Assembly: GCA_963727625.1 (NCBI GenBank)
Contig: CAVSHR010000014.1
Coordinates: 32,889 to 96,888 of the forward strand
Source of the DNA: an uncultured delta proteobacterium
GTDB lineage: Bacteria; Desulfobacterota; Binatia; UBA9968
Length of the DNA: 64,000 nt
Direction: 5' to 3'
In this document: one piece after another, positions 25,422-51,586 of the stretch
Numbering within the stretch: the first letter of the stretch is position 1
How the letters are laid out: each line of letters starts with the position of its first letter
Translations under genes and position numbers: made by a program
The notes under the pieces: model-generated
Told to the model about the DNA's origin: nothing
Seen by the model: only the letters and a program-made list of their open reading frames with translations
Databases searched by the model: none

Positions 25422-25546
25422 CGACCGTTTGGTCGAAAGTTCCGTCACTTTCGACGAGGTTTCTCCCGCTGCTTAGCCCGACGGGAAGAAAAGTATCCGA
25501 ACAATTAGCTGTCTTCCTCACGAACAGTTGTGGCACAAGGCTTGCG
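25422..25546 (+). promoter_or_regulatory. Enhancer-like element (25422-25457) plus sigma54 promoter TGGCACAAGGCTTGC (25531)
   Basis: CGACCGTTTGGTCGA element; GG-N10-GC promoter 109 bp downstream. Confidence 0.8.
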
Positions 25547-25766
25547 CCTACTGGGCTTAGATAGTTGTTTCAGTGAAGCGATATGCGCCCAACTATTTTG
25601 ATCGGCGTCATGATTCTACTGACGATGGGCGGATTGTCATCCGGCCTCGCGGTCGGTCGTTGGATTACTCCCGCCGCGGGGAGATGGAATCGCAAACCGG
25701 CTTACTAACAAATCAAATCTGGGAACGGCCCCAAAGGCGCCGAACTCCGAAATTGGGAGGTGCTTT

Positions 25767-25985
25767 ATGCCTTTAGTTCAACTCGTGGTGGTCTTGATCG
25801 TAGTCGGGGTTCTCCTCGGCATGGTTAATCGCTACATACCGATGGCAGGATCCATTAAGTCGATTTTGAACGGCGTTGTGGTGATCGGCGTAGTTCTGTG
25901 GCTACTGAATGTTTTTGGACTTTTCAGCTCCCTCTCCGCAATCCATGTGGGCAAATTGTCTTGGCTCGGTGGGATCGGCGCTTAG
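25767..25985 (+). CDS. Thivi_2564-like small membrane protein
   Basis: MPLVQLVVVLIVVGVLL..VNRYIPMAGSIKSILN; GGAGG RBS. Confidence 0.85.
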   Translation: MPLVQLVVVLIVVGVLLGMVNRYIPMAGSIKSILNGVVVIGVVLWLLNVFGLFSSLSAIHVGKLSWLGGIGA

Positions 25986-26050
25986 TTGCAGTAATAAGGA
26001 GTCGCAATGGGTTTCCAACTGACCCGATGAGTATCCCATAATTTGAGATC

Positions 26051-28483
26051 ATGAGTGCAGGGATGTTGTATTGGTCGTTGATGTTTCTTCTGGTTGCTCT
26101 AAGCGCCGGGCTGCTGGTCGTTGCGCTCACCGCAACCGGCGCGCGAAAAATTTTGCCATGGCTCGCTCCGCACGCCCGCTGGGACTGGGCGACTTCTATT
26201 CCAATATGGTTCAGATCGATGCGCGAGAAAGCCCTGGCAGTCGCTCAAAGCTTCCACAGTGACCGATTAGGGAGGCTGCGTTGGCGAAGAGGCATCTTTA
26301 ACCTGGTGATTGTCGCGCCGCCGATGATCGCTGCATTTCTGTCGATCGGATTTTATCACGTCTATTTTGACCGAAGCGATTTGCCCGACATAGAAGCGTT
26401 GGTTCGCTTTGAGTTGCCTACCATTGGCACGGTCTACGATGCCAAGGACGAGCCGCTCATCGAACTGGCGAAAGAGTACCGGAAGATTGTCAAGTATGAG
26501 GACATCCCGCCGATTGTTCGCGATGCAATCATCGCGGCTGAAGACAAGGATTTCTTCGTCCATGGCGGCGTCAATTATGCGGTCATTCCTCGGGTGCTGG
26601 GGAAAGTCAGAATTCGAGCTCTGGCGTCGCGTCTGATCGGATTGGGGGATCAAGACCCGGTGCTGTTTCCGCAAGGCGGATCGACGATCACCCAACAGCT
26701 CGTGCGAGGGTATTTTCTCAAGAACTTGACGGCTCGAGAAAACAGCAGCCGGCTCCAGCATGGCGGAATTTTATCTAGCGCGCTGTCTTACCTAATCGGA
26801 GCGCGCAGCGTCAACATGCTGGTGCGCAAGCTCGAGGAGATTCGCCTCTCGTTGTGGCTCGAAAGCGAGATGCGAAAGCGCTTCGGCTCGAAACGCAAAG
26901 CCAAGGAAAAAATTCTCGCCCTTTACGCCAGCTTCATTTACATGGGAAACAGCCGGTACGGGTTTGCAACGGCAGCGGAATATTATTTTGGCCGGCCGCT
27001 CGCCAGCTTCACCGTCGATGATGCGGACAAGGCGGCGCTCCTCGCAGGCATTGCCAAGGCACCGCGCACCTACGCGCCCAACGCGACGGCAACGGCGAGA
27101 GTTCTGCGTCGGAGAAATCAAACTCTGGCGCTTATGGCGGCGAACGGGTTCATTTCCCGGGACAATGTGAATTCAGCCGAGCAGCGTCCGATTCAAGTGA
27201 TCGCGGGCGGCAAAGACAAAATGATTCAGGCGCCCGCGGTCCTTGGAACCATTGTTCAGGAGCTGAAGCGACGCGGCAACCTAAGCCTTGACGACTTTCG
27301 GCAGGGACGAGTCCAGGTTTACTCCACGGTGGAAGCCAGAGTGCAGCAACTTGCCAACTCGGCGCTGGAACATGGACTTGAACTTTACGAGCAGCGACAC
27401 CCGAGCGCCAAAGGAATTGTCCAGGGTTCTGTCGTCGTGCTGCGGAACCGTGACGCCGGTATCCTCGCCGAGACGGGCGGTCGCCAGTTCTACCAGGACC
27501 GCTCAGCGGCATATAGCGACTTTAACCGTGTCACCAAGTCGGTGCGACAACCTGGGTCAACGATGAAACCGATGGTCTATCTCGCTGCCTTTCGGCAGGG
27601 AAATTTTGACCTTGAAACGGTCGTTCCCGACGAACCGATCGGCGTTCCGGACGGAGCGCAGCAGAGCACGAAATGGATCTCGAACTACGATGATCAATTC
27701 AAAGGCATGATTCCGCTGCGCGAGGCGCTCGCAGAATCGAGAAACGCCGTCGCGGTCTGGCTCACCGGGCAGATTGGGATTGGCAGCGTTCTACGGACTT
27801 CGCATGCTTTAGGGATCCAGTCGCGGTTGCAACCCTACGCGACGACGGCATTGGGCGCCTCTGAAGTGAATTTGCTGGAGCTGGCCAATGCGTACCGTAC
27901 CATGGCCTCGGGGATTTTGGTCGAGCCGACCGTGATTCGAAAAATCGTCCGAGATTCGGCCGAGGTGAAGGCCGAGAACGAGATGGGGCGACCTGCGGTG
28001 GATGTCAATGACTCCGCGCTCGCGCTTATTCAGGAAGGCCTGCGCAGTGTCGTGCGCATTCCCAGCGGCACGGCTCATGCGCTTGACTCCAGCGTTTTCC
28101 CGATCGCGGTCATGGGCAAGACAGGGACGACAAACGAGTTCAGAGACGCGCTGTTTGTGGGGTCGACCTACGGCCCCGAAGGAATAACCATCGCCGTTCG
28201 TATAGGCTTCGACGACAACCGTTCGCTCGGGCCCCAGGAAACCGGTGGTCGGGTTGCGCTGCCGGTGTTCAAGGACCTCATGCTCAGAGTTTACCGCGAA
28301 AAGCTGGTCGGCGCTGCGCCGAAGTTTCCGGCGCAAATGGAGGAGAATATCGATGAGTACCTCGCGGGCGGCTCGGTGGCGAACGGAGAATCCGTGAGCG
28401 CAACCGAAAACCCATCAAATGCATTGCTACCGCTTTCGGTGGGCTTCACGGATCGTAGCGAGCCGTCTCAAGAACGGCCGTAG
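26051..28483 (+). CDS. Class A penicillin-binding protein (transglycosylase/transpeptidase)
   Basis: AEDKDF..HGG, GGSTITQQL, RKLEE, QPGSTMKP (SxxK), SRN, KTGT. Confidence 0.93.
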   Translation: MSAGMLYWSLMFLLVALSAGLLVVALTATGARKILPWLAPHARWDWATSIPIWFRSMREKALAVAQSFHSDRLGRLRWRRGIFNLVIVAPPMIAAFLSIGFYHVYFDRSDLPDIEALVRFELPTIGTVYDAKDEPLIELAKEYRKIVKYEDIPPIVRDAIIAAEDKDFFVHGGVNYAVIPRVLGKVRIRALASRLIGLGDQDPVLFPQGGSTITQQLVRGYFLKNLTARENSSRLQHGGILSSALSYLIGARSVNMLVRKLEEIRLSLWLESEMRKRFGSKRKAKEKILALYASFIYMGNSRYGFATAAEYYFGRPLASFTVDDADKAALLAGIAKAPRTYAPNATATARVLRRRNQTLALMAANGFISRDNVNSAEQRPIQVIAGGKDKMIQAPAVLGTIVQELKRRGNLSLDDFRQGRVQVYSTVEARVQQLANSALEHGLELYEQRHPSAKGIVQGSVVVLRNRDAGILAETGGRQFYQDRSAAYSDFNRVTKSVRQPGSTMKPMVYLAAFRQGNFDLETVVPDEPIGVPDGAQQSTKWISNYDDQFKGMIPLREALAESRNAVAVWLTGQIGIGSVLRTSHALGIQSRLQPYATTALGASEVNLLELANAYRTMASGILVEPTVIRKIVRDSAEVKAENEMGRPAVDVNDSALALIQEGLRSVVRIPSGTAHALDSSVFPIAVMGKTGTTNEFRDALFVGSTYGPEGITIAVRIGFDDNRSLGPQETGGRVALPVFKDLMLRVYREKLVGAAPKFPAQMEENIDEYLAGGSVANGESVSATENPSNALLPLSVGFTDRSEPSQERP

Positions 28484-28614
28484 CATCGGCCGGTCGTTGG
28501 GTCGCCATCCAGACCGGTCATGTTGACCGGATCTCAACTTCTCCGATTCGCAGCGCGTAGATCGAATCGCGATTATCTGAGGCAGCGGCATTTCGGCAAT
28601 AGTAAGAAAGTTCC

Positions 28615-30528
28615 ATGAAAAATCCATCCGAGCGACTTAGTCTCCAGGGCCATGGCGGTCCCGGCACCGGAACACTGCCATATGTGATCGCCGTCGCGAC
28701 TTTCGTTCTGATCATTGCGTCGCTCTATTGGGCGCAAGCTGTCCTGATCCCCGTCGCTTTGGCGATCTTGTTGACCTTTTTGTTGACTCCGGTTGCGGGC
28801 GCCCTGGAACGGATCACTCGTAGACGACTTCCTTCAGTGATCCTGGTCGTAGTTCTGACATTTTCTCTCCTGGGAGGAATCGGCTGGATCGTCACGCTTC
28901 AACTCGGCAGCCTGGCGAACGAGCTGCCTAAATACACACGCAACATCCGGCAAAAAATTGCCGACGTCCGCGGGGCGGGCAAGGGCGGTGCCTTTGAGAA
29001 AGTGCAAAAAACCGTCGAGGATGTAAAAAGCGAAATTCAGAAAGGCGACGAGTCCGCAGGGGTGAGTGGTCAAGGCCTACCAGTCATCGTGCAGCCTGAG
29101 TCTTTCACGTTTTGGCCTGTTCCACAGGCCGTTGGGCCGATGTTGGAACGCCTTGCCAGCGCCGGCCTCGTGATTGTGTTGGTCATCTTTATGCTGATTC
29201 AGCGCGAAGATCTGCGCAATCGCTTCATCCGGCTCGCGGGTTATGGCCGTTTGACGATTACGACTCTGGCGCTGGAAGAAGCGGGTCAGCGCATTAGCCG
29301 TTACCTGTTGATGCAGACGATCATCAATTGCTCCTTCGGGCTAGCGGTGGGTTGCGCGCTTTATCTGATCGGTGTTCCCTATGCCATCCTCTGGGGTTTT
29401 CTTGCCGCCGTGTTGCGATTCATTCCGTATATTGGATTCTTCGTAGCGGCGATCTTGCCCAGTGCGCTCAGCCTGGCGGTTTTCGACGGCTGGCTGTGGC
29501 CGATCGTCGTTGCCGGACTCTTTTTGGCGCTGGAACTCCTCAATAATATGGTTCTGGAGCCGCTGCTCTATGGCGAGAGCGCGGGCGTCTCGGGAGTCGG
29601 GCTCCTCGTTGCACTGGCGTTCTGGACATGGCTTTGGGGGCCGGTCGGACTGGTCCTCGCCACCCCGCTCACGGTCTGTGTTGTCGTGCTGAGCAAGTAC
29701 GTGCCCGGGATGGATTTTATCGGAGTGCTGATCAGCGATCAGCCGGCGCTGGAATCAAACATAAGCTACTACCAGAGACTGTTGGCCATGGACCAAGCCG
29801 AAGCGGCCGAAATCGTCGAAGAACATCTCAAGACCCATCCGCAGGAACAGCTCTTCGATGCGGTGCTGGTGCCGGCGCTGAACTACGCCCGGAGGGACCG
29901 AGAGCTCGGAAGGCTGACGGACGATGGCGAACAATTTGTTTTCCGCGCGACACGGGAGATTTTGGAGGACCTTGACCGTTTGACGCCCAAGAGTTTGCCG
30001 GAGGCTCCCGACTCTGCCAAAGCAGAGTCGATTGTCGAAGGCTCCCAGGTCACCCTTTCCCCGAAAGTTCGCGTCTTAGGGTGTCCCGCCCGCGACGAAG
30101 CAGACGAGCTGGCGCTCCTCATGTTCAGTCAGCTACTGGATTCCAGCAAATTTGAATTCGAGGTCGTATCCGATGCGGTGCTGGCTTCCGAAGTTGTTGC
30201 CCGGATCGAAGAAAAAACCCCAGCGATGATTTTTATCGCCACCGTATCACCCGGAGGACTGGCGCAGACACGTTATCTCTGCAAGCGGTTACGGGCGCGA
30301 TGTCCCAATCTCAAGATCGCGGTCGGACGATGGGGTATGGGAAGCGAGGATAAAAATGGCATTCTGCTCGCGGGTGCCGACAGGGTTGGGACGACCATGA
30401 TCGAAACGCGCGAGCAGTTGATTCAATTGTGCCAATTCGGCGCCCAGTCAGAAGAGCCGTCGGTTGCAACGGTTCCTGCTTGTCCTACCAGCAGAGAGAC
30501 GCGCCCCCTGACTTTATCTGCTGATTAA
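28615..30528 (+). CDS. AI-2E (UPF0118) family transporter with C-terminal B12-binding-like domain
   Basis: RFIPYIG, NN..EP.LYG.S.G.S, FWTWLWGPVGL.LATPLTVC, YYQRLLA.D. Confidence 0.92.
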   Translation: MKNPSERLSLQGHGGPGTGTLPYVIAVATFVLIIASLYWAQAVLIPVALAILLTFLLTPVAGALERITRRRLPSVILVVVLTFSLLGGIGWIVTLQLGSLANELPKYTRNIRQKIADVRGAGKGGAFEKVQKTVEDVKSEIQKGDESAGVSGQGLPVIVQPESFTFWPVPQAVGPMLERLASAGLVIVLVIFMLIQREDLRNRFIRLAGYGRLTITTLALEEAGQRISRYLLMQTIINCSFGLAVGCALYLIGVPYAILWGFLAAVLRFIPYIGFFVAAILPSALSLAVFDGWLWPIVVAGLFLALELLNNMVLEPLLYGESAGVSGVGLLVALAFWTWLWGPVGLVLATPLTVCVVVLSKYVPGMDFIGVLISDQPALESNISYYQRLLAMDQAEAAEIVEEHLKTHPQEQLFDAVLVPALNYARRDRELGRLTDDGEQFVFRATREILEDLDRLTPKSLPEAPDSAKAESIVEGSQVTLSPKVRVLGCPARDEADELALLMFSQLLDSSKFEFEVVSDAVLASEVVARIEEKTPAMIFIATVSPGGLAQTRYLCKRLRARCPNLKIAVGRWGMGSEDKNGILLAGADRVGTTMIETREQLIQLCQFGAQSEEPSVATVPACPTSRETRPLTLSAD

Positions 30529-31591: not shown

Positions 31592-31629
31592 GTCACAAGT
31601 TTCGGCTAACGGCCGTTAACCGAACCATT

Positions 31630-31753
31630 CGACCTTTTGGTCGAGCGATTCGACTCCCACGACGATTCCTTCATACTGGTTGATCCAAAAACTGAATGAA
31701 ATGGTAGGAAATCATAGCCTTTTTGAAACACAAGTTCTGGCACACAACCTGCA
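31630..31753 (+). promoter_or_regulatory. Enhancer-like element plus sigma54 promoter TGGCACACAACCTGC (31738)
   Basis: CGACCTTTTGGTCGA-N5-TCGAC; 108 bp spacing. Confidence 0.8.
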
Positions 31754-31795: not shown

Positions 31796-31876
31796 ATGGA
31801 CACTGTATTGATCGTTATTTTAGTGTTGTTTTTGGTCGGTGGTGGGGGCTGGGGATATTCTCGTTGGCGCCGGTAG
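31796..31876 (+). CDS. 26-aa membrane microprotein
   Basis: AAAGGAG RBS; MDTVLIVILVLFLVGGGGWGYSRWRR; directly after a sigma54 promoter. Confidence 0.8.
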   Translation: MDTVLIVILVLFLVGGGGWGYSRWRR

Positions 31877-32075
31877 CGGCCATGGGCCATGGGGAACTTG
31901 GCGGAATTTGGATCGCTTGGGATTCGTGACCAGTATTTCGCTGCGAAACCGCATGGTCAGAGTGTTCGATGACCGGCTACTTGCAGGATAGCTGATCGAC
32001 CCAACTTTCAGGGATAACCCACATTGTACAATAACCCGGTCGCCGACAAATCAAGATGAAAGTTTAGAGGGATTT

Positions 32076-32300
32076 ATGACGAAGCAAATCGAAATTCACG
32101 GTCAGCTCGTCAAACTCTATAGCTTGGACGCAGGCCGTACCTGGTCGAGCAGCCCGCAATCGATCGTTGCCTATGGACACCGGAAAACGGCGCTGCGCTT
32201 GGAAGTACAAAAAAGTTTTAAACGTATAGATGAGGCGGAGCAGCCCAATTCGGATCGTATTGGCGTTCTAAACATACCCTTGAACTTTGTCGGACGTTGA
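32076..32300 (+). CDS. Hypothetical protein of the KQIEIHG...GRTWSSSP family (paralog of 61454)
   Basis: Clear paralog in the window; GAGG RBS. Confidence 0.75.
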   Translation: MTKQIEIHGQLVKLYSLDAGRTWSSSPQSIVAYGHRKTALRLEVQKSFKRIDEAEQPNSDRIGVLNIPLNFVGR

Positions 32301-32396
32301 GGCGAAGACCCTTGGTCAGACTGCTCCTTTTCTCGTAATGTTGTGCGCGCCCGGATCGACGGTCGTCCGATTCCGCAAAAGAAAGGAGAAACTAAC

Positions 32397-32471
32397 ATGA
32401 ACAATATTTTTTACATCGTGGGTGTCGTTGTTGTGGTGCTCTTCGTTGCCGGTTATCTCGGACTGAGATAG
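32397..32471 (+). CDS. 24-aa membrane microprotein
   Basis: AAAGGAG RBS; MNNIFYIVGVVVVVLFVAGYLGLR. Confidence 0.75.
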   Translation: MNNIFYIVGVVVVVLFVAGYLGLR

Positions 32472-33380: not shown

Positions 33381-33504
33381 CGACCGTTTGGTCGACAATT
33401 TCGACGCTTTTAACGAGCGGTTTTTTCGTTTTCCTCTGACAGCTTCAATAACCCTTCGGAAACGCAACGCTTTCCTCGACGCGGGTTTAGGCACGGTTAG
33501 TGCT
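33381..33504 (+). promoter_or_regulatory. Enhancer-like element plus sigma54 promoter AGGCACGGTTAGTGC (33489)
   Basis: CGACCGTTTGGTCGA-N5-TCGAC; 108 bp spacing. Confidence 0.78.
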
Positions 33505-33552: not shown

Positions 33553-33702
33553 ATGCGACCAATAATCTTCGCGACACTCATGATGTTGGGTCTGCTGGCC
33601 ACCAACATCGCTTGCAACACGGTTCACGGTATCGGCCAAGACGTCGAACGGGCCGGCGAGAAGACTCAGGACGCGGCGGATGCCGTGAAAAAGAAATTGT
33701 AA
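33553..33702 (+). CDS. Entericidin A/B family lipoprotein
   Basis: ACNTVHGIGQDVERAGE; AGGAG RBS. Confidence 0.9.
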   Translation: MRPIIFATLMMLGLLATNIACNTVHGIGQDVERAGEKTQDAADAVKKKL

Positions 33703-33788
33703 TGCCGATGCTCAATAGGTCCAAAGATATTTAGGTAAAAGAGCCCCGTTAGGGGAGTCCAGGACCGGTGAAGTTTTTTTTTCGATTG

Positions 33789-33830
33789 GTCTCTTATTGG
33801 ACAGAACTATTTAACTCGACCGGGTATTTT
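33789..33830 (+). promoter_or_regulatory. Crp-type box plus -10 TATTTT
   Basis: GTCTCTTATTGGAC-N22-TATTTT. Confidence 0.72.
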
Positions 33831-33952
33831 TCAGGAAGTTTAAACATGGCGGTCCGCCCTGAGATTAGTGGAAATCCTTCCGCTAAGTCTGGCTATACTC
33901 GCGAATCAGTAAAGCCGAAGGGAAGGATAGATGTTTGGTTAGGAGTAAATTT

Positions 33953-34579
33953 ATGAATCCATTCAATCGCGCCGCCTCCTGTGCCGTTCTTGGTTTGGCG
34001 TTGACGGTCAGTGCCGGTTGCAGCGACAACATCGCCCTGATCGGCAGACCCGCGCTACAATTGGACCCAGAGGAGATCTTCGCAGAGATCGACCGGGTCG
34101 ATATTTCGTCCCGCCAGATTCATTTGCGACCGGAAAATAGCCGCGACCGGGTGGTCGGTTATAGCACCGATGCCCGTGTGCTTTATCAGGGTCGAGAATA
34201 CTCGATCGCCCAATTGGAAAAAGGAGATAAGGTCTCCATGCAACTGAAACAGGACTCTCGCGGCAACGCCTATACGAATTTGATCCGCGTCCAGGAAAGC
34301 ATCCAGGATCGGAATCAGAGCCGGCGCGGTGATGCCAGTTCAGATTCCAGGCTCCAGATGGTCGACGGGCGGGTGGAGCGGCTGGATTTCCAACGCAGAT
34401 CTTTCGAAATCAGCGATCCGTCCCGAGACCGGGTGATCGTTTCTCTTTCATCCAACGCCCAGAGATCGGATATGGATCGTTTCCGCGCGCTGCGAAATGG
34501 AGATTACGTCAGAGTCGAGGGAAGATTCCTCAATCGTGAACGTTTTGAGTTGGACAGTTTCCTACGGGAGAACCGTTAG
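33953..34579 (+). CDS. Lipoprotein with two small beta-rich (DUF5666/OB-like) domains
   Basis: SAGC lipobox; paralogs at 40107, 52844 and 59267. Confidence 0.8.
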   Translation: MNPFNRAASCAVLGLALTVSAGCSDNIALIGRPALQLDPEEIFAEIDRVDISSRQIHLRPENSRDRVVGYSTDARVLYQGREYSIAQLEKGDKVSMQLKQDSRGNAYTNLIRVQESIQDRNQSRRGDASSDSRLQMVDGRVERLDFQRRSFEISDPSRDRVIVSLSSNAQRSDMDRFRALRNGDYVRVEGRFLNRERFELDSFLRENR

Positions 34580-34735
34580 CCGATTGCTCGTCAGCCTTCT
34601 TGTGCGTCGAGGATGGAAACGCGACGCGGTTGCTTCGAAATATAGCGATTTCATTTCTCGTCGACGAGCACGCTGAATGGCAAAAGAAACAGGACGAAAA
34701 AACTGCATTTCAAAATTAAGGCATGGAGGTGATTT

Positions 34736-35047
34736 ATGATCCGCGCAGTCAAATCGTTGTCAGTGGCATTGGTGGTTTTATTTTTCATGACCGGCTGCCA
34801 AGCCATGACCGGCGAGACCATGGGGCAGAACATCGATGACGGAACTCTTACTTCCTACGTCAAGACCAAACTGGCGTCGGATAAAATCAACAGTCTGACC
34901 CGCGTGGGCGTCGAGACCAACAACGGCGTCGTTTATCTAACCGGCGAAGTCGAGACCTCGGAGCAGAAGTCCCGCAGCGGCGCTCTCGCGTTCGAAGTCA
35001 AGGGCGTCAGGCAAGTCGTCAACAATCTGCAAGTCATCAGGCGTTAG
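34736..35047 (+). CDS. BON-domain lipoprotein (paralog of 17501)
   Basis: Collinear with 17501, e.g. FFMTGCQAMTG and VETNNG. Confidence 0.92.
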   Translation: MIRAVKSLSVALVVLFFMTGCQAMTGETMGQNIDDGTLTSYVKTKLASDKINSLTRVGVETNNGVVYLTGEVETSEQKSRSGALAFEVKGVRQVVNNLQVIRR

Positions 35048-35091
35048 AGACGTACAGATCCAACAAGGACATTTAAAAACAGGAAAAAATT

Positions 35092-35394
35092 ATGACAACG
35101 AACGGCGAATCGAAATTCTCATACTTACTAATCGGTCTCGGTCTGGGAGCCATCGGCGGGCTGATGGCTGCGATCTTGGCCCACAAAGAGACGCGCGAGA
35201 CGCTCCGCGATCGCGGCGGTAGAAGCCTAGACTCCCTGAATCAGCAGGTGGGCAAGCTGCGCGAGACGGCCGACGTGATCGTGCAACAGGGAAAGAAGCT
35301 CATCGCTTGCAAGGACTCCGACTCGGTCCGCCAATCTACGGAGGCCGATCAGCAGGCCTATCATGAAGACCGGCGAGAAAACTTGGGGGGCTAA
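35092..35394 (+). CDS. YtxH-domain protein (paralog of 17858)
   Basis: Near-identical N-terminus TNGESKFSYLLIGLGLGAIGGLMAA. Confidence 0.8.
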   Translation: MTTNGESKFSYLLIGLGLGAIGGLMAAILAHKETRETLRDRGGRSLDSLNQQVGKLRETADVIVQQGKKLIACKDSDSVRQSTEADQQAYHEDRRENLGG

Positions 35395-35436
35395 GATTCT
35401 CGCTTACCGGTCTTCAAGAAGAATCGGGAGCTAATC

Positions 35437-35610
35437 ATGATCTGGCTTATCTTCGCGATGCTTTTAGTTTTGGGCGTAGTGGCATTATTCGTTCCCTACA
35501 CGGTGGTTGGAAGCGTCATCCAAATCGTTGCGGCTGGCATATTTGTCTGGATCGGGATCTATCGCATACTTGCGATATCGAAGCGCATGCGGCGGTATCA
35601 AGGCATTTAA
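35437..35610 (+). CDS. Small membrane protein, diverged lmo0937/DUF5670-like (57 aa)
   Basis: MIWLIFAMLLVLGVVALFVPYTVVGSVIQI...; same syntenic slot as 18529. Confidence 0.6.
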   Translation: MIWLIFAMLLVLGVVALFVPYTVVGSVIQIVAAGIFVWIGIYRILAISKRMRRYQGI

Positions 35611-35643
35611 TTATTTGCGCGCCGGTTAACAAGGGAAAACCAT

Positions 35644-35874
35644 ATGCGTACCAGCCCGCTGGCACTTATTGGAATCGCTCTTATCGTTCTTGGAATCGTC
35701 GCTTTCGCCTACCGCGGAATCCCGTATACAAGCCGCGAAAAGGTGATCGATATCAGCCCGGGCCAGGCCAGTGCTGACACCAGGAAGACCATCCCCATGT
35801 CACCGCTCTTGATAGCTTTGGCACTTGCAAGCGGGGCCGTGCTGGTAATGATCGGAGCCAAGAAGTCGTCTTAG
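35644..35874 (+). CDS. DUF3185-like membrane protein (paralog)
   Basis: GIVAFAYRGIPYTSREKVIDI...GAKKSS. Confidence 0.82.
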   Translation: MRTSPLALIGIALIVLGIVAFAYRGIPYTSREKVIDISPGQASADTRKTIPMSPLLIALALASGAVLVMIGAKKSS

Positions 35875-39746: not shown

Positions 39747-39804
39747 TGGCTTTGCAAACAGGGGTGTAAACTTTTAGCAATTCTACGCATAGTGTTCCGT
39801 CTTA

Positions 39805-39830
39805 GGTTACTCGAAATTGTTCCAGCAAGC
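39805..39830. repeat. 26-bp imperfect palindrome, copy 2
   Basis: GGTTACTCGAA-ATTG-TTCCAGCAAGC. Confidence 0.5.
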
Positions 39831-39870
39831 CTGACGTGACCCTCTAACAAGTCAACCAAGGGAGGTTGAG

Positions 39871-40098: not shown

Positions 40099-40106
40099 GA
40101 GGCGTC

Positions 40107-40505: not shown

Positions 40506-40520
40506 CCTGAACCGCGACCC

Positions 40521-41396: not shown

Positions 41397-41520
41397 TGTT
41401 GTTTTGGTCGAAAGTCTCGACGATTCCGCCGGACTTTCTCACGATGTTTATCGCGGCGCGCCAGTAATCTAACAAGAAAAGCAGCGTTCTCGCGTGACAA
41501 GGTGTGGCACAGATAGTGCT
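41397..41520 (+). promoter_or_regulatory. Enhancer-like element (left arm degenerate) plus sigma54 promoter TGGCACAGATAGTGC (41505)
   Basis: TTTTGGTCGA-N5-TCGAC; same 108 bp register. Confidence 0.75.
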
Positions 41521-41612: not shown

Positions 41613-41795
41613 ATGAATAGCTTAAAAATAGCCGTGTACGGGATTTTCATGGTCGGATTTTTGTTGGCTTCGAGCGGGTGTCACGAGTGGAGCCACTGGG
41701 ATCGCCATGGGTATGACAGCGACCAGACTCGCTATGACCGAAATGATCGGGGTGGATTTAGAGAGAGCACTAGGGACGGCAATTTTTCACGGTAA
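41613..41795 (+). CDS. Small D/R-rich lipoprotein (distant paralog of 18187)
   Basis: ASSGC lipobox; D/R/Y-rich tail. Confidence 0.65.
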   Translation: MNSLKIAVYGIFMVGFLLASSGCHEWSHWDRHGYDSDQTRYDRNDRGGFRESTRDGNFSR

Positions 41796-41943
41796 GCGCC
41801 GGGCGGATCGAGCTCAGGCCGACACGACTTGCGGCAAGGTTGCCACAGAGTTAAACCAATGTAGCTTAGGAAAAATCAGGTCGAGTAGTTCGGAAAAGCA
41901 CGCAGGCATATGACCGCAGCTGCGCGACAGAACTTTCTAGACA

Positions 41944-43101
41944 TTGGCCGTGGACCAATTACAGACCCACAGCGGCGGCACGCCAAGAGTATCACTCGAA
42001 ACCGTAGGTGATACCACGCTCGTCGTGCAACTTTCCGGCGGCTGGCGACTGCAAAAAAACGCTGTTTCTGCCAGCGTGGTGCAGGAAGCAATCGAGGCTT
42101 CTCCTATTCGCCGCGTTCGCTTCGATGCCGAAGCGCTCTCATCTTGGGACAGCAGCATCCTGATTTTTTTAGCCAAAGTGACTGAGCTCTGCCGGCAGAA
42201 GAACATCGACACCGACCGCGAGGGGTTGCCGAACGGGATTCGGCAACTGCTTGAGCTCGCTGAAGAAGTGCCGGAGCAAGAAGGAGCCAGACAGGCGACC
42301 GATCGGCTGTCCTTTTTGGCGCGGGTCGGCAGCACCGCCTCCGATTCTTATCTCTCTTTATCGGAGATGCTGCACTTTCTCGGCGAAGTGGCGTTGGCGT
42401 TCGCGCAGATGGTCAAAATGCGCGCGCGCTACCGGTCAGCCGATCTGTTTCTGATTATCCAAGAAAGCGGCCCGCAAGCGCTGCCCATCGTCACGCTCAT
42501 CAGCTTTTTAGTGGGTGTGATCATGGCGTTTGTCGGCGCCGTTCAGCTGCAGCAATTCGGCGCCCAGATCTATGTGGCGGACCTGGTGGGGATCGCCGTC
42601 GTTCGCGACATGGGCGCGATGATGACCGGGATCATCATGGCGGGCCGGACCGGCGCCGCCTTCGCCGCAAAGCTCGGCACGATGAAGGTGACTCAGGAAA
42701 TCGACGCGTTGATCACGCTCGGATTCTCGCCGCTGGAATTTTTGGTGTTGCCGCGCATGATCGCGCTTTGCCTGATGATGCCATTATTGTGTCTGTACTC
42801 CGACCTCATGGGTGTTCTGGGCGGCGCAGCGGTGGGGTTGTGGATGCTCGACCTCTCCTGGACCACTTACTACCACCAGACCATCAATGCGATCACCTTG
42901 ACGGCACTGTTCGGCGGAATCTTTAAAAGCGTAACTTATGGCGTGCTGATCGCTCTTTCAGGATGCCTGCGCGGCATGCAGTGCGGCGGCAGCGCTTCGG
43001 CTGTTGGAGAGGCGGCGACCTCCGCCGTGGTCACGAGCATCGTTTTTATCGTCGCCGCATGCGGTGCCTTGTCCGTGATATTTTATATCATTGGGGTTTG
43101 A
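41944..43101 (+). CDS. MlaE-family ABC permease with N-terminal STAS domain
   Basis: AGRTGAAFAA.LGTMKVTQEIDAL, LPRMIAL, VGEAATSAVV. Confidence 0.93.
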   Translation: MAVDQLQTHSGGTPRVSLETVGDTTLVVQLSGGWRLQKNAVSASVVQEAIEASPIRRVRFDAEALSSWDSSILIFLAKVTELCRQKNIDTDREGLPNGIRQLLELAEEVPEQEGARQATDRLSFLARVGSTASDSYLSLSEMLHFLGEVALAFAQMVKMRARYRSADLFLIIQESGPQALPIVTLISFLVGVIMAFVGAVQLQQFGAQIYVADLVGIAVVRDMGAMMTGIIMAGRTGAAFAAKLGTMKVTQEIDALITLGFSPLEFLVLPRMIALCLMMPLLCLYSDLMGVLGGAAVGLWMLDLSWTTYYHQTINAITLTALFGGIFKSVTYGVLIALSGCLRGMQCGGSASAVGEAATSAVVTSIVFIVAACGALSVIFYIIGV

Positions 43102-43102
43102 C

Positions 43103-43891
43103 ATGAACAGTGAAAGTACAAACGGAATCGAACCGGAAGCGCAAATTACCGTGCGCAATCTGACCCTGGCCTACGGCTCCTTCGTCTTGATGCGCGATCT
43201 CAACTTTACGGTCAAGCGGGGCGATGTGTTTATCATCATGGGCGGCAGTGGCTGCGGCAAGAGCACGTTGCTGCGCAACATGATCGGTTTGATCGAACCG
43301 ACCGCGGGAGAGGTCTTTTACGAAAAGGCGAACTTTACCCACTCGGATGCGGAGGAGCGGCGCGGTTTTTTTCGCCGCTTCGGTGTCCTGTATCAGAGCG
43401 GTGGTCTGTGGAGCTCCATGACTCTCGCCGAAAACGTCGCGCTGCCGCTGGAAGAATACACCGATCTGAGCCCGGTCGAGATCCGCGAGATCGCTTCTTT
43501 GAAGCTCGCTTTGGTCGGCCTTAACGGCTTTGAAGACTATTACCCGTCGCAGATCAGCGGCGGCATGCAGAAGCGTTTGGGTTTGGCGCGCGCCATCGCG
43601 CTCGACCCCGAGGTGCTTTTCTTCGATGAACCCTCGGCAGGGCTCGATCCCATCAGTTCGCGCCGGCTCGACGACCTGATCTTGGCATTGCGCGATAGCT
43701 TGGGCGCGACGGTGGTTGCGGTAACGCACGAGTTGCCGAGTATTTTTGCCATCGGTAATAACAGTATTTTTCTTGATGCCGAAAGCAAAACCGCGATTGC
43801 GAGCGGTGACCCGAAAGAGCTGCTCGCACATTGTCAGAACCCCAAGGTGCAGGAATTTCTCACCCGCGGTGAAAGGCGGCCTAGTGAGTAA
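43103..43891 (+). CDS. MlaF-family ABC ATP-binding protein
   Basis: GGSGCGKST, ISGGMQKR, FDEPSAGLDP, VTH. Confidence 0.95.
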   Translation: MNSESTNGIEPEAQITVRNLTLAYGSFVLMRDLNFTVKRGDVFIIMGGSGCGKSTLLRNMIGLIEPTAGEVFYEKANFTHSDAEERRGFFRRFGVLYQSGGLWSSMTLAENVALPLEEYTDLSPVEIREIASLKLALVGLNGFEDYYPSQISGGMQKRLGLARAIALDPEVLFFDEPSAGLDPISSRRLDDLILALRDSLGATVVAVTHELPSIFAIGNNSIFLDAESKTAIASGDPKELLAHCQNPKVQEFLTRGERRPSE

Positions 43892-44888
43892 AAAGGCTAA
43901 TCCGACGCTCATCGGAGTCTTCGTGGTCGGCGCCATCGTTTTAGTGATTGGCGCGGTTACTATCATTGGCTCGGGGCGGCTGTTCCGAAAAACCTACGAG
44001 TTTGTGCTCTACTTCGAAGGTTCGGTAAGCGGCCTGAGAGAAGGCGCTCCGGTAAAGTACAAGGGCGTCGAAATCGGCTCCATTACCAAGATCCTACTGC
44101 AACTCGATGAGGGTGCAGATGTCAACCGAATTCCGGTAATTATCAAACTCGATGCCAATAAGATCAGCGGCAGAGGAGTCGGCGGCAGTCTGGCAGACCC
44201 GGCCGGGCTCAAAGCAGCAATTGATCGGGGTCTGCGCGGCCAATTGCAGACGGAAAGTATCGTTACCGGCGTGCTGTTCGTCGCGCTGGATCTCGTTCCC
44301 AATAGCCCGGTAAAGTTGTTTCAACCGCCGGGCTCGCGGTACCAGGAAATTCCTACCATCCCGACGACGCTGCAAAAAGCCCAGGATATCCTCGGACAGC
44401 TTCTCACCAAGCTCGATGACATTGATTTCAAAGCGCTGCTCAACTCCCTTGCTGAAGCCGTCAAGAATATAGAGGGATTGGCGAACAATAAGGACCTGCA
44501 GGGAGCCTTTGCCGGGGTCAATCGTTTAGTCAATAAGCCGGAGTTGCACGAGGCGATTCGCTCTCTCGATCAAACGGTGCTGAAAATTGCTCAAGCGGCG
44601 GACGGTGTTCAAAAAGTCTCCGGCAGTCTGGATCGCAATGTGGCGACGCTCTCGGCGGATTTACAAGTGACGCTGACCGGCGTGCGTGATGCGGTCAAGC
44701 AGATCCAAGTCACTGTGGCGAACCTGGACGGCTTCGTCGACCCTAACTCGCCAACCTCTTATGAATTGACAAAGGTTTTGAAAGAGCTTTCCGGGGCGGC
44801 ACGTTCGCTCAGATTGATGGCCGATTCTCTGGACCGGAATCCCAGGGCACTCTTGTTCGGTAGGCCGGAAAGCGAGAGCAAACCATGA
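43884..44888 (+). CDS. MlaD/MCE-family substrate-binding protein
   Basis: GTG start VSKKANPTLIG.FV; SVSGL..GAPVKYKGV.IG; L.RNP.ALLFG. Confidence 0.92.
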   Translation: MSKKANPTLIGVFVVGAIVLVIGAVTIIGSGRLFRKTYEFVLYFEGSVSGLREGAPVKYKGVEIGSITKILLQLDEGADVNRIPVIIKLDANKISGRGVGGSLADPAGLKAAIDRGLRGQLQTESIVTGVLFVALDLVPNSPVKLFQPPGSRYQEIPTIPTTLQKAQDILGQLLTKLDDIDFKALLNSLAEAVKNIEGLANNKDLQGAFAGVNRLVNKPELHEAIRSLDQTVLKIAQAADGVQKVSGSLDRNVATLSADLQVTLTGVRDAVKQIQVTVANLDGFVDPNSPTSYELTKVLKELSGAARSLRLMADSLDRNPRALLFGRPESESKP

Positions 44889-45517
44889 GCGATTGGATGA
44901 AAAATATTCTGGCGATCATCGCCATGTCGGTTTTGTTCGGCGGTTGTGCCGCCTTTGCAGCCAGAGCCGATCCGTCAAGTTTCTATATCCTTGGCACTCT
45001 CCCCGAGGTAGACTTGGCGGCAGACAAGACCACAGCCGGGATCAAAGCCGATTTTTCCGTCGGCCTTGGCCCCATTGAATTACCCGCTTACCTCGACCGC
45101 CAACAGATTGTCACACGCACCTCGACGAATCGATTGAGCTATTCCGAGAATGACCGCTGGGCAGCGCCGTTGGCCGAAAGTTTCAGTCGCGTTTTGGAAC
45201 AAAATATTTCCCATCTGCTCAATCCTGTGCGAATGAGCCGGTTTCCCTGGCAGAGTAACAGCGCACCGGATTACCAGGTGAAAATCGAAGTGCTCCAATT
45301 CGAGGGCAATAGCAATCAGGAGGCTCGGCTAACGGCGCATTGGACCGTGAGCGACCGCCACCAAAAAATTTTAGTCAGCCAAAGCTCACAGCTGAAGCGC
45401 CGCGCCGGATCCCTATCCACCGAAGATTCTGTCAAGGCATTGAGTGAAACGGTCGGCGATCTGAGTCGTGAGATCGCAAACGCATTGCGGTCTTTCGAGG
45501 AGCAGAGAAAACTTTAA
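44885..45517 (+). CDS. PqiC-family ABC auxiliary lipoprotein
   Basis: FGGC lipobox; LPAYLDRQQIV, RWAAPL. Confidence 0.9.
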   Translation: MSDWMKNILAIIAMSVLFGGCAAFAARADPSSFYILGTLPEVDLAADKTTAGIKADFSVGLGPIELPAYLDRQQIVTRTSTNRLSYSENDRWAAPLAESFSRVLEQNISHLLNPVRMSRFPWQSNSAPDYQVKIEVLQFEGNSNQEARLTAHWTVSDRHQKILVSQSSQLKRRAGSLSTEDSVKALSETVGDLSREIANALRSFEEQRKL

Positions 45518-46319: not shown

Positions 46320-46330
46320 TAGCAAAGCGT

Positions 46331-48071: not shown

Positions 48072-48105
48072 GATTTTAATTGCGATATCTGGGTTAGGCG
48101 TCCAG

Positions 48106-48139: not shown

Positions 48140-49689
48140 GTGACATGTCGGACCGATCCAAAACCGCAAATTCAGGAACTCACTAGTCCTGAAATAAGCG
48201 CCAAGCGTCTAAAAGTATGCATGGTCGGTTCATAGGGAGATCCTTGACGGTTCGTAAGCCCATCATGAGCATGCGTTTATATCACAAATCGGAGCCAGTC
48301 GGATGTTGTTGGACGATGAACCGAGGTCGAGAGTGATTTTGAGCGCAGCGCGGCGTGCGTCGGCCCGCGGGAGCAGCCGGATGAGGTCGCGTCGCAACCG
48401 TCTGTTAGGTCTGCAATCGAGCATGAGCGGCGAGGATGTCGGGCAAATACCGATGCGATCCGGCCAGCCGCACCACCAAGCTTCTGCCGAGCTTGAGAAC
48501 CTTGGCCGCAATGTAGACAAAGTGGCGGCGAAAGCGCTTCCACTCCCAGCGCACTACCTCCTCGGGCAAGACCAGTTGGGCGATCCACTTGCCCAGATTC
48601 CACGCCAGCCGAGCTATTTCCAGCCACGCCGAGTTGCCCATAAACTCCGCCACCGGCATGCGCCACCCCGCAATGCCGTGACCGAATTGCTCGATGAGGT
48701 TTTCCTGGTCGCAGCGCTGATAGGTCAGATCGACGACCCGCTGAGCCGTGTAAGAACGCGGCAGATCGCTCAGCACCAACCGGTAGCGGAAATGGCGAAA
48801 GAGCACTCCCTGACCATCGCACTCTTCAATCAAAATCCGCCGCACGATCAGGCGACACGGAAAGGGCACCCCGGCGGGCTGATAGTCGATCTCGCTGATC
48901 CACTGCTGAAGCGTGCTCAACGTGCGGTACCCTCGCTGTTGGGCTTTGGTTTTGCGGTAGTTGGGGGTGCGCCCCTCACGACTAGACCCGGCTGGCTTGT
49001 TGCGCTCGGCGCGCGGACAAAATCGCTGCCAACGCTTCTCCGCAATCGCCTCGGCCAGCGCGGCGCGATTGGGATGCAGCTTGGCCCCAATGGCAAAGTA
49101 CGCCCCCTGCTCGATCACCGCCTGGTACACGTCGGCCCGATCAAAGTCGGTATCGCCCCGCACAATGGCGCTTTTGAAATGGCGCTTCACCCGTGGCAAA
49201 ACTTCCTTGAGAGCCTCGGCGGCGCCGTCCGCAGCATGCCCGCTGCCTGGCTGATTGACCACCTTGAGGCACTCCCCACTGCCACCCAGCGTCACCACCA
49301 ACGGCTGATACGACCAACGCCCGTCGTAGCTAAAATCCGCCCCTCTTTCTGCACCCCGTACAGGGGCTTGATGTGACCATCGAGATCCACCAGCGCCATC
49401 TCGTGCTTCTTCCTGTGACGACGTACCGGGGCGGGCAACTTCGACCACACCGCCTCTTGCACCTCGTCGCCCACCCCACTCAACTGCTCCAAATCTTGTG
49501 CGCTCTTAAACCGACGCAGAAAATCTCCCGCCGTCGTCGGGTCCGGAATCCGACACGCTCCCACCAGTCTTCGAATCGCCTCGCTCCCTTGCAGCACCGC
49601 CTGGTCCTCCAGACATGTCCCATCGGCATAAAGCGTGTACATCAGCGCCAGCACATGGTCCGACTCAAAGTAGGGGGCATGACGCCTAA

Positions 49690-51174
49690 CAGCCCGTGGT
49701 AGAAGTCCGATTTTTACAAAACGCATGGGATCGCGGCGAAGCGGTGACTTGGGAGCGCAAATAGTCTCAGGTCGAGTCCTCGGCGCCGATGAGCGGTTAG
49801 TTGGTCGCGCAGTAGCACCCACAGAGTAAAACAGATAGCCAGTACGGCGGCAAAACGGCCCTGTAGACCGCGTGGCGTTCCAATTCCCGTCAACGTGCGC
49901 ATCCACAGGCCCAGATTGCAGGCCGCTACGTGCACGAGTAGCCGTTTGAGAATATTGCCGTGCCCGCGCAGATGAGTCCGGCGCATGCCGCCGGTCTCGT
50001 AGAGATGCGCATTGGGTCGCTCTAACAACTCACCTCGTTGCCGCATCAATAGCTGCCCACGCTCGCCTCGAATGCGCCGCCGATTGGCATACACCGCGTC
50101 ACGCTCAGCCTGCTGACCCTTCCAGTGCTGCCGGCCGCGATCCGGTTCACTGATGTAGGTGCGCAGTCCTAGGTTCTGCATATCGAGCACGGTTTGCTTA
50201 CTGTGATAGCCCTTGTCGGTGACCACTTCCTTGCCTATCTTCACCTTGTCGTCGATGATCGCAGCCACCGCTTCTAATTGCTCGATTGCCTCAGGCAGCG
50301 TCGTCTGGATCGTGGTCGTGTCGCCTTGATCGGCTTCCTGCAGCGTGACCGCCACGATGGCACCGGTCTCCAGGTCCACGGCATGCTCGGCTTTGTGCGC
50401 TAAATGGGTCCGTCCGTCCTTCATCTTGGCGATCCGTGCGTCGGGGTCATGCGGATGTTCCCAGTCCTGGTTAGATCCTTTCTTCTTACGTTTGCGATCC
50501 AACTTCGCCAGATCGGCTCGCGTTGGGGTCTCAATGCCGGATTCCTCAGCCAGCTTGGTCAAAAACTCGTTATAGCTCTCCCCGGTGTCGCGGCGCACGA
50601 TGCTGCGCAAGGCCGCGTTCGCTTCGAGCGTGGTAGCATCGATCGCCAGCGTTTTCCCTTTGATGAGTCCGGCGATGCCCAGACACTGAAGTACCCATGT
50701 GAACACCGTCCGATGGGTTTCCAAATCGATCAATCGCCGAGTCCGCGATATCGTCGAATGATCCGGTGCACACTCGGTCAGCCCCAGCTCAAGGAACGAT
50801 CGCACTCCCGAGGAGTCCGCCGCGCGCCACGCCATGGCGCGTTCAGAGTCCAGGCATTCGAAGTAGCCAAGTAATAGAAAACGGAAATATCGTCCAGGCG
50901 CCAGACTGGGCCGCCCCATCTTCTCGGCATAGAACGCCCGGCACTGCGCTTCGACAAACTCGTCGAACCCATGCTTGGCCAATAACCCGTTGAGCTTCTC
51001 GTAGAACGGGTGGCTCACAGACTTCGGCAGCTCGCTCACTCCCACCCACATCGCTCTCTGCTCTTCGTGTTTTCGTTGTCCCATCGCCATGCAAAAAATT
51101 CTACACGATCTATCGTTCCTGTCGACTACTCTCCATCACTCTCCCACTTCATTCTCGACTTTCACCACGGGCTG
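49690..51174 (-). mobile_element. IS1182/IS5-like insertion sequence (1485 bp)
   Basis: 18-bp IRs CAGCCCGTGGTAGAAGTC and GACTTTCACCACGGGCTG; 4-bp target duplication CTAA (49686-49689 and 51175-51178). Confidence 0.92.
49714..51090 (-). CDS. DDE transposase with DUF772-like N-terminal domain
   Basis: GRPSL.P, SER, PDHSTISRTR, IDATT, DKGYHS, ERPNAH. Confidence 0.92.
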   Translation of the reverse strand: MAMGQRKHEEQRAMWVGVSELPKSVSHPFYEKLNGLLAKHGFDEFVEAQCRAFYAEKMGRPSLAPGRYFRFLLLGYFECLDSERAMAWRAADSSGVRSFLELGLTECAPDHSTISRTRRLIDLETHRTVFTWVLQCLGIAGLIKGKTLAIDATTLEANAALRSIVRRDTGESYNEFLTKLAEESGIETPTRADLAKLDRKRKKKGSNQDWEHPHDPDARIAKMKDGRTHLAHKAEHAVDLETGAIVAVTLQEADQGDTTTIQTTLPEAIEQLEAVAAIIDDKVKIGKEVVTDKGYHSKQTVLDMQNLGLRTYISEPDRGRQHWKGQQAERDAVYANRRRIRGERGQLLMRQRGELLERPNAHLYETGGMRRTHLRGHGNILKRLLVHVAACNLGLWMRTLTGIGTPRGLQGRFAAVLAICFTLWVLLRDQLTAHRRRGLDLRLFALPSHRFAAIPCVL

Positions 51175-51550
51175 CTAAACAACACCAGGGCCTGGTCCAA
51201 CCGCTGCGCAACCCGAAACCGCCGGACAAACTGCTGCGCCAAGACCAAACCTCCATAATGCGTAATGTTACCTCGTGGATCGCTCTCAAGATGGAGCAGC
51301 GGATGGCGCATCACCCGCCCTTGAGTCTCGGGCCACGGAAGTTCGGCAGGATCGATGCTCGTACCGGAATTGACGTGACTTGCACGTCCAAATGCGATAG
51401 ATATTTTCACTTGGGAGCCCTCTGCTTTTTGGGGTTACGTTGCTGTGTGGCAACTCTTCGTATACCTCATTTCAGAGGGCTTTTCCCGTTTTTAAATCCA
51501 CCTCAACAAATTTTCCTGTCCACAGCGCTTATTTGAGGACTAGTCTAGTC

Positions 51551-51586
51551 CGACCTTTTGGTCGAAGCTCTCGACGCGTTTGACGA
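51551..51586 (+). promoter_or_regulatory. Enhancer-like element with a degenerate associated sigma54 box
   Basis: CGACCTTTTGGTCGA-N5-TCGAC...GACGA. At +109 only AGGAAC is present, without a -12 GC. Confidence 0.65.

Follow-up and report, generated by a model that had tools for sequence, protein, structure and literature searches.

Tandem palindromes at a fixed distance from sigma-54-type promoters in a Binatia-like bacterium: a putative enhancer for an envelope-stress system resembling ZraSR

Motif copies, promoters and genes in the window

The 64-kb stretch analysed here, referred to as the window, belongs to contig CAVSHR010000014.1 of an uncultured delta proteobacterium assigned to the Binatia. 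It contains six copies of a 37-base motif, all of them intergenic, located on the forward strand, oriented toward the genes downstream and clustered within 26 kb. Five of the six are followed, on the same strand and at a distance of 108-109 bp, by a -24/-12 promoter of the sigma-54 type. The features of the region are reported in Table 1.

The motif copies were identified by searching both strands of the window for the pattern CGACCNTTTGGTCGA-N5-TCGAC, allowing up to 3 mismatches. This left-anchored pattern produced five matches, all on the forward strand, one with 2 mismatches (25422) and four with none (31630, 33381, 39428 and 51551), against a chance expectation of 0.02; five matches were reached in none of 100 shuffles. 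A pattern limited to the right-hand part of the motif added the sixth copy (41404-41432), where the left arm is decayed. Its 10 matches, compared to 0.33 expected, correspond to the six copies, to three overlapping or reverse-strand self-matches of the palindromes, and to one intragenic match with 3 mismatches (36865).

The motif is composed of two adjacent 16-bp palindromes of identical geometry, with centres 21 bp apart. The distal site, which is the stronger one, reads TCGAC-N6-GTCGA, mostly in the fuller form TCGACC-N4-GGTCGA; the proximal and weaker site begins 21 bp after it, and reads TCGAC-N6-GMCGA. By setting the T of TGGCAC as position -26, the centres of the palindromes fall at about -127 and -106, two helical turns apart, in the usual range for sigma-54 enhancers. 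Enhancers of this class usually comprise two or more dyad-symmetric sites in helical phase, roughly 80-150 bp ahead of the promoter.

The strict promoter pattern TGGCA[CT]-N5-[TCG]TGC is found four times in the 64 kb, each time 108-109 bp after a motif copy (promoters 1, 2, 4 and 5 in Table 1), while promoter 3 is a near-match to it. Two further matches to GGCAC-N5-xTGC (28067 and 28979) are intragenic, with no motif upstream. A looser pattern, TGGCACNNNNNTTGCW with 2 mismatches, produced 29 matches in the window, compared to 30.3 expected; being at chance level, it is uninformative. Its matches at 19783 and 58898 were rejected as promoters, as they are the start codons of DUF3309 paralogues, and the sequence at 58144 (TTGCAC...) was rejected as a motif-linked promoter, as no motif is found upstream.

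An earlier note, made from the letters of this DNA, had listed six motif copies, one with a decayed left arm, and five GG-N10-GC promoters at a nearly invariant distance of 108-109 bp; both statements are borne out by these searches. The half-sites, described there as recurring at every helical turn, are indeed present as CGAC and GTCG halves, and are now resolved into the two 16-bp palindromes. The first genes downstream had been described as coding for small envelope proteins: the named families are confirmed by profile matches, except that the Thivi_2564 family protein is encoded by the second gene of its operon, after a 41-amino-acid (aa) peptide.

Table 1. Motif copies, promoters and downstream genes. 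Operon extents were inferred from gene spacing and strand.
Feature	Position in the window	Strand	Remarks
Motif copy 1	25421..25457	+	strong TCGACC-GTTT-GGTCGA and weakened second site CCGTC-N6-GACGA
Motif copy 2	31629..31665	+	TCGACC-TTTT-GGTCGA, then TCGAC-N6-GACGA
Motif copy 3	33381..33416	+	pattern match, 0 mismatches
Motif copy 4	39427..39463	+	pattern match, 0 mismatches (39428)
Motif copy 5	41397..41432	+	left arm of first palindrome decayed; right arm and second site retained
Motif copy 6	51551..51586	+	intact motif, degenerate -24/-12 region (about 51655-51680); upstream of gene 51923-52510
-24/-12 promoter 1, TGGCACAAGGCTTGCG	25531..25546	+	109 bp after start of copy 1; identical string in syntenic L021
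-24/-12 promoter 2, TGGCACACAACCTGCA	31738..31753	+	108 bp after copy 2
-24/-12 promoter 3, AGGCACGGTTAGTGCT	33489..33504	+	108 bp after copy 3
-24/-12 promoter 4, TGGCACGTTAGCTGCT	39537..39552	+	109 bp after copy 4
-24/-12 promoter 5, TGGCACAGATAGTGCT	41505..41520	+	108 bp after nominal start of copy 5
Operon 1	25583..30528	+	four genes, listed below
Conserved 41-aa membrane peptide, operon 1	25583-25708	+	first open reading frame
Thivi_2564 family protein, operon 1	25767-25985	+	second gene; NF041949, 66.9 bits, cut-off 33
PBP1A, operon 1	26051-28483	+	
AI-2E family transporter, operon 1	28615-30528	+	
Operon 2	31796..32471	+	three genes, listed below
26-aa peptide, operon 2	31796-31876	+	matches first half of DUF3309 (PF11752, E = 4e-6)
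Conserved 74-aa protein, operon 2	32076-32300	+	
24-aa hydrophobic peptide, operon 2	32397-32471	+	
Operon 3	33553..35874	+	six genes, listed below
Entericidin-like lipoprotein, operon 3	33553-33702	+	
214-aa lipoprotein, operon 3	33935-34579	+	
BON/OsmY-like lipoprotein, operon 3	34736-35047	+	
YtxH-like protein, operon 3	35092-35394	+	
Two small membrane proteins, operon 3	35437-35610, 35644-35874	+	
Operon 4	39597..41201	+	four genes, listed below
DUF3309 protein, operon 4	39597-39746	+	PF11752, 55.7 bits
Two lipoproteins, operon 4	39871-40098, 40107-40505	+	
Crp/Fnr-family regulator, operon 4	40521-41201	+	
Operon 5	41613..45517	+	lipoprotein gene, then Mla genes
60-aa D/R-rich lipoprotein, operon 5	41613-41795	+	similar 73-aa lipoprotein after entericidin in L075
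MlaE, operon 5	41944-43101	+	
ABC ATPase (MlaF), operon 5	43091-43891	+	
MlaD, operon 5	43746-44888	+	
Auxiliary lipoprotein, operon 5	44885-45517	+	
196-aa membrane protein	51923-52510	+	downstream of copy 6

PBP1A and the AI-2E family transporter are presumably co-transcribed from promoter 1. Copy 6 appears to have lost its promoter; the orthologous promoters in three loci from related genomes (L027, L010 and L017) read TGGCACACAACCTGCT where, by alignment, the window sequence is degenerate. This copy, the sole one in the window with a decayed promoter, is near a gene for an insertion sequence (IS)-type transposase (DUF772 and DDE_Tnp_1, 458 aa; 49714-51090, reverse strand), which lies 460 bp upstream of it. 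A dodecin-like gene (52542-52902, forward strand) is apparently frameshifted, being split over two frames with a break near 52670-52690; its relatives are single 71-aa proteins (MERTYKKIEIVG...EVTEMRGLVEKDK...). Together with the decayed promoter, the frameshift may indicate an operon that is degenerating, or an error of the assembly.

Some of the gene families listed in Table 1 have further members in the window. Three DUF3309 paralogues are present on the forward strand (19783-19931, 39597-39746 and 58896-59047), and motif and promoter are found only at the middle one; each adjoins a Crp/Fnr-family gene (18940-19758 and 40521-41201) or, as judged by eye, a remnant of one (about 58760-58860). 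Three paralogous lipoproteins (33935-34579, 40107-40505 and 52781-53179, forward strand) have no Pfam or NCBIfam match, and members of this family follow the motif in several genomes; two of the three have a common C-terminal block, ...VDGRVER.D.QR..FE...RVEGRF..RERFEL..FLR.NR. The stress-gene island is flanked by glycogen and glycan genes (970-5886 and 22300-24099), coding for GlgC, a GT4 glycosyltransferase fused to a longer protein, a GH130 phosphorylase and a branching-enzyme-like amylase; in locus L012, a motif copy directly follows the amylase gene. Further membrane-stress genes, an NfeD-FloA (flotillin) pair (12897-15315) and the gene for a protein with four BON domains (61690-62742), both on the forward strand, have no motif copy.

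Recurrence of the motif-promoter unit in related genomes

A single exact-match scan with a strict form of the pattern was performed on 185,579 species-representative genomes. As an exact match was required, the numbers of sites per genome are minimum values, and the bases fixed in the pattern are conserved by ascertainment. The scan identified 110 loci, here designated by L numbers, containing 109 distinct exact sites.

The pairing of element and promoter, for which a genome-wide search had been proposed as a check, was evaluated by locating.GGCA.-N5-.TGC. downstream of each site, the offset being counted from the start of the motif to the base preceding GG. The box is found at +105 to +110 after 54 of the 109 sites, distributed over offsets of 105 (n=1), 106 (n=3), 107 (n=11), 108 (n=20), 109 (n=14) and 110 (n=5), with a mean of 108.1 and a standard deviation of 1.1, as calculated by hand from the offsets. 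Over the 200 bases following all 109 sites, there are only two other matches to the pattern, at +89 and +123. The promoter-linked sites derive, by hand count, from 24 assemblies; a genome has up to 6 exact sites, which are grouped within tens of kb. Their records are labelled as uncultured delta proteobacterium (32 sites), Candidatus Binatia (10), Deltaproteobacteria (6), Thermodesulfobacteriota (4) and Pyrinomonadaceae (2).

The related loci show 75-86% nucleotide identity to the window, and none is more similar. At this level of identity, the palindromes and the -24/-12 box are near-invariant, while the spacer between them drifts. Within the second palindrome, three bases lying outside the search pattern are also conserved among the promoter-linked sites of the other genomes: G32 in 43 of 54, C34 in 52 and G35 in 50. 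These bases, which were not selected by the search, complete a second TCGAC-N6-GMCGA site.

The gene families found in the window recur downstream of motif and promoter elsewhere, including DUF3309, the 26-aa peptide, entericidin, Thivi_2564 with PBP1A, Mla, BON and the Crp-like regulator, the latter being the first gene after motif and promoter in L036 and L073. L021 is syntenic with the region of copy 1, with the same promoter string followed by the genes for Thivi_2564 and PBP1A. Additional targets in the relatives are a lmo0937-like 49-aa protein, a dodecin-like protein, and a secreted OmpA-like or Gly/Met-rich protein.

The 70-bp spacer was analyzed by aligning 59 sites on their promoters. 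Common features are a pyrimidine-rich stretch and three short tracts, AAGAA (about -68 to -64), GAAA (about -55 to -53) and CTTT (about -45 to -42), phased about 10-12 bp apart. When the window spacers were compared with each other, 4 of the 10 pairs aligned better than all 300 shuffles, with z-scores up to 5.6. The intervening DNA, previously regarded as unrelated between copies, is therefore so to a first approximation only: several pairs exceed shuffled sequences, and the phased A/T tracts are common to the 59 promoters.

A candidate activator and its predicted operon

In order to find a regulator associated with the motif, an activator signature, consisting of GAFTGA and a Walker A motif, was sought in the 110 loci, 80 of which were provided with up to 2 kb of flanking sequence. 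It was present in six (L021, L071, L032, L003, L056 and L059), from Binatia-like, Vicinamibacterales, KSB1 and Krumholzibacteriia records. Each of these loci has an NtrC-family gene that runs in the direction of the motif and stops 25-655 bp short of it. The encoded proteins match Sigma54_activat and HTH_8, and the four that are not cut at the locus start also match Response_reg. A putative recognition helix, SER[A/H]LRYKL, is common to all six, where Escherichia coli ZraR has TRKTLLAKL. The L021 protein shows 54% identity to those of L003 and L056, and 49% to E. coli ZraR over 436 aa. The best NCBIfam models for these proteins are AtoC, NifA, ZraR and NtrC, all with scores below their cut-off, and the closest solved structures to the candidate are those of Aquifex NtrC-family regulators and of ZraR. 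A co-conserved NtrC-family gene, whose search the earlier note had recommended, has thus a candidate.

A search with the DNA-binding domain returned 719 protein clusters, bearing generic names among the 120 matches listed; the matches include the full-length L071 protein (P0070). Contig CAVYTU010000017.1 carries five motif sites. An activator homologue, P0040, located on a 1.16-Mb contig with five motif sites, is 257 aa long and lacks both the receiver domain and Walker A; it may be truncated or be an artefact of gene calling.

The arrangement of the genes differs between groups of loci. In the Binatia-like L021, L071 and L032, a ferritin-like gene is found between the activator gene and the motif. 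In L003 (Vicinamibacterales), L056 (KSB1) and L059 (Krumholzibacteriia), the order is activator gene, tandem palindromes, sigma-54-like box and gene for a secreted Gly/Asp-rich protein; in L003, a kinase fragment is also present upstream of the activator gene. Seven loci, each from a different assembly, have motif and promoter ahead of a gene for a secreted protein, after which comes a conserved membrane sensor gene; these secreted proteins have no Pfam match beyond OmpA and collagen-like repeats. In DAIRFP010000069.1, about 1.77 kb separate the start of the sensor from the activator gene, which is followed by a ferritin-like gene and by the next motif. As this distance fits one kinase gene, the arrangement points to a positively autoregulated operon, predicted to encode a secreted protein, a kinase, the activator and a ferritin-like protein.

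Among the loci from other groups, the first target in L003, L028, L043, L056 and L059 is a secreted protein with Gly/Asp repeats of the FVDxNGDGxxDN or GYGPGDGTCDG type and no family match; in L028 and L056, the next open reading frame codes for a long signal-peptide-like protein. In L071 (2587-3156), a gene for a receiver-only response regulator, similar to one of the window described below, lies downstream of a motif-driven small open reading frame. Such a receiver-only regulator might act as a phosphate sink, or as a connector of the same pathway.

Interpretation, alternatives and known systems

On the basis of these sequence comparisons, the motif is probably the upstream activating sequence, or enhancer, of a set of sigma-54 promoters, at which an uncharacterised activator of the NtrC type most likely docks in a Binatia-like bacterium. 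In our reading, it would be the enhancer used by an envelope-stress system similar to ZraSR that has grown into a regulon of several operons. The earlier note had proposed an enhancer-like site for a bacterial enhancer-binding protein, and this proposal is supported by the position, the dyad symmetry and the fixed orientation of the element, as well as by its link to the -24/-12 box, both in the window and in 24 related assemblies.

The proposed mechanism is as follows. Two dimers of the NtrC-family response regulator, made of receiver, AAA+ and Fis-type helix-turn-helix domains, would bind the two palindromes on the same face of the helix; phosphorylation by a membrane sensor kinase would lead to assembly of the active ring. 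By looping of the 70-bp spacer, where the phased A/T tracts may provide a bend, either intrinsic or mediated by an IHF/HU-type protein, the ring would reach the sigma-54 holoenzyme at the -24/-12 box, and ATP hydrolysis would then open the promoter. The narrow distribution of the offsets (mean 108.1, standard deviation 1.1) argues for a geometric constraint. The output of the regulon would include DUF3309 peptides, entericidin, Thivi_2564 with PBP1A, BON and YtxH proteins, the Mla lipid transporter and a Crp-like secondary regulator; in the relatives it would also include a secreted Gly-rich or OmpA-like protein, the sensor and the activator, providing positive autoregulation. Gene content and likeness to ZraSR suggest that the signal is an envelope or periplasmic cue.

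A broader scenario is offered as a tentative one, which we regard as possible but rather doubtful. An ancestral ZraSR-like unit, formed by kinase, activator, one enhancer and one secreted protein, and seen in Acidobacteriota, KSB1, Krumholzibacteriia and Bacteroidota-labelled records, would have become the master switch of a general envelope-stress regulon in Binatia-like bacteria. A rigid, self-contained promoter cassette of about 135 bp, made up of the two palindromes, a phased bend and, at 108 +/- 1 bp, the -24/-12 box, would have been copied ahead of at least a dozen operons coding for tiny membrane peptides, lipoproteins, PBP1A, Mla and the secondary Crp-like regulator.

Several observations weigh against the enhancer reading and its assignment to this activator. 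Neither a sigma-54 activator gene nor rpoN is present in the 64-kb window; at the place syntenic with L021, upstream of copy 1, there is only a 153-aa receiver-only response regulator (24743-25204, forward strand). The link to the activator comes from six neighbourhoods, its helix was compared with that of E. coli ZraR only, and the candidate is below every named NCBIfam equivalog cut-off (AtoC, 529.1 bits compared to 714; ZraR, 449.5 compared to 760). No -24/-12 box is found at +108 from copy 6 in the window, and the canonical IHF consensus WATCAANNNNTTR was not seen by eye in the aligned spacers. Finally, 55 of the 109 collection sites have no promoter at +105 to +110. They include two in-clade sites with a variant -24 box, TGGTAC or TGGCGC, at the same offset (L023 and L105), two sites cut by the end of the locus (L032 and L102), and sites from other phyla where tandem palindromes are accompanied by sigma-54-like boxes at +88 to +132 (L003, L028, L043, L056, L059 and L087); the remainder mostly belong to Actinomycetota, Alphaproteobacteria and others, unrelated phyla.

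The geometry of the palindromes is a further point against the enhancer reading. TCGAC-N6-GTCGA fits the 5-N6-5 geometry of a Crp/Fnr-type dimer, a geometry typical of CRP-family sites, and a Crp-like regulator is encoded within the regulon, in operon 4 of the window and as the first gene in L036 and L073. For these reasons, a serious rival is that the palindromes are the operator of a Crp/Fnr-family regulator (40521-41201, or its paralogue at 18940-19758), acting as co-activator or repressor, the true activator binding elsewhere or acting from solution. We consider it unlikely. The position of the centres, about -106 and -127 relative to a sigma-54 promoter, fits neither class I nor class II of CRP sites and is not usual for activation by CRP. 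An activator is indispensable at sigma-54 promoters, and the promoter-aligned sites show no further conserved dyad upstream. In L003, L056 and L059, the open reading frames of at least 120 aa code for the response regulator, the kinase fragment and secreted proteins, and no Crp-like protein was recognised among them, a full Pfam scan of the loci not having been made. Sigma-70-like matches in the window are at chance level (11, compared to 8.6 +/- 3.4).

The remaining alternatives assign no protein to the motif. The unit of about 135 bp could be a duplicated promoter cassette, retained by recent descent, or a repeat similar to repetitive extragenic palindromic (REP) elements or miniature inverted-repeat transposable elements. 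The copies are clustered within 26 kb, with an IS transposase gene 460 bp from copy 6, the spacers of paralogous promoters are weakly similar, and the whole module is alike across gene families. The near-invariance of palindromes and box at 75-86% identity, while the spacer drifts, and the conservation of bases of the second palindrome that the search did not select, are at odds with this explanation, as is the presence of the same palindromes beside orthologous-looking activator genes in other phyla, within unrelated flanks. Orientation is always fixed, unlike that of REP elements, and a REP-like repeat independent of -24/-12 boxes, the outcome that the earlier note had named as contrary to its proposal, is not what was found, the box being at a fixed offset in 5 of 6 window and 54 of 109 collection sites. 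This explanation is thus judged very unlikely. It is extremely improbable that the element works at the RNA level, with the inverted repeat terminating the upstream transcript or stabilising its 3' end as a hairpin. A hairpin of 5-7 bp is possible in the first palindrome, and one copy (33405-33419) scores as terminator-like; folding energies, however, are barely below those of shuffled sequences (z-scores of -1.2 to -2.4), and the five copies folded do not agree in their predicted structures. A T-run is missing from five of the six copies, the arms are kept by conservation of sequence and not by compensatory change, no Rfam match is present in the window, and terminator-like sites are found there at chance level (24, compared to 19.3 +/- 4.7).

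If the enhancer reading and the cassette scenario are true, the unit of regulon growth is the whole cassette, beyond the binding site alone, and the near-invariant spacing reflects a looping geometry with almost no tolerance. The analysis provides a concrete and testable regulon for an uncultured Binatia-like lineage, and biochemical work could start from a defined operator, together with a candidate activator and the sensor that belongs to it. The very small envelope peptides concerned (DUF3309, Thivi_2564, entericidin-like and those of 24-41 aa), most of which are uncharacterised, would be tied to one signal pathway, which suggests their joint action in envelope stress. The tight enhancer-promoter spacing (standard deviation of about 1 bp over 54 promoters) could be useful for studies of looping constraints and for orthogonal inducible promoters.

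No published account of sigma-54 control in Binatia was found, nor any description of this dyad or regulon, in a search that did not extend to the motif tables of two Desulfovibrio papers (PMC4641369 and PMC3333781). The motif is absent from the portions available of PMC12316311, PMC4641369 and PMC3333781; the main text of PMC4641369, in particular, contains neither TCGAC nor GTCGA. According to the sections available of the two Desulfovibrio papers, DVU3381 and DVU1419 of Desulfovibrio vulgaris are sigma-54-dependent two-component regulators, labelled "envelope stress response", that target their own operon and adjacent hypothetical genes (PMC4641369, PMC3333781). As far as reported in those sections, their regulons are small (2-3 operons), unlike the multi-operon set described here.

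In gene content, the set is similar to general stress regulons of small envelope proteins, such as the alphaproteobacterial EcfG regulon, which includes entericidin, BON/OsmY, YtxH-like and small DUF membrane proteins. The logic of the EcfG system is different, being based on an extracytoplasmic function sigma factor with an anti-sigma partner switch, instead of sigma-54 and an enhancer-binding response regulator.

By analogy, the best-supported reading is that the motif would work like the enhancers of NtrC and ZraR. At glnAp2, NtrC dimers bind two sites (TGCACC-N5-GGTGCA) on one helical face, at about -140 and -108, oligomerise cooperatively and reach the sigma-54 holoenzyme by looping. The centres of those sites are three turns apart, compared to two here, and the NtrC regulon concerns nitrogen assimilation, not envelope proteins. 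ZraR (HydG), 49% identical to the candidate over 436 aa, is likewise a two-component NtrC-family activator, and its operator likewise consists of two dyads with an A/T-rich centre upstream of sigma-54 promoters. It controls a periplasmic protein and its own kinase-regulator operon, within an envelope-stress theme. In the zraP-zraSR region of E. coli K-12, however, the dyads are two copies of CGAGT-N7-ACTCG, which differ from TCGAC-N6-GTCGA, and the recognition helix TRKTLLAKL corresponds to SERALRYKL in the L021 protein. With these differences, and a score below the family cut-off, the candidate is not a ZraR equivalog. Autoregulation of ZraR is mentioned in the portion available of PMC12316311. 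In the autoregulated operon of the relatives, the first gene codes for an OmpA-like or Gly/Met-rich secreted protein, and the single divergent promoter pair of E. coli contrasts with six motif copies, five of them with a promoter, within 26 kb of the window.

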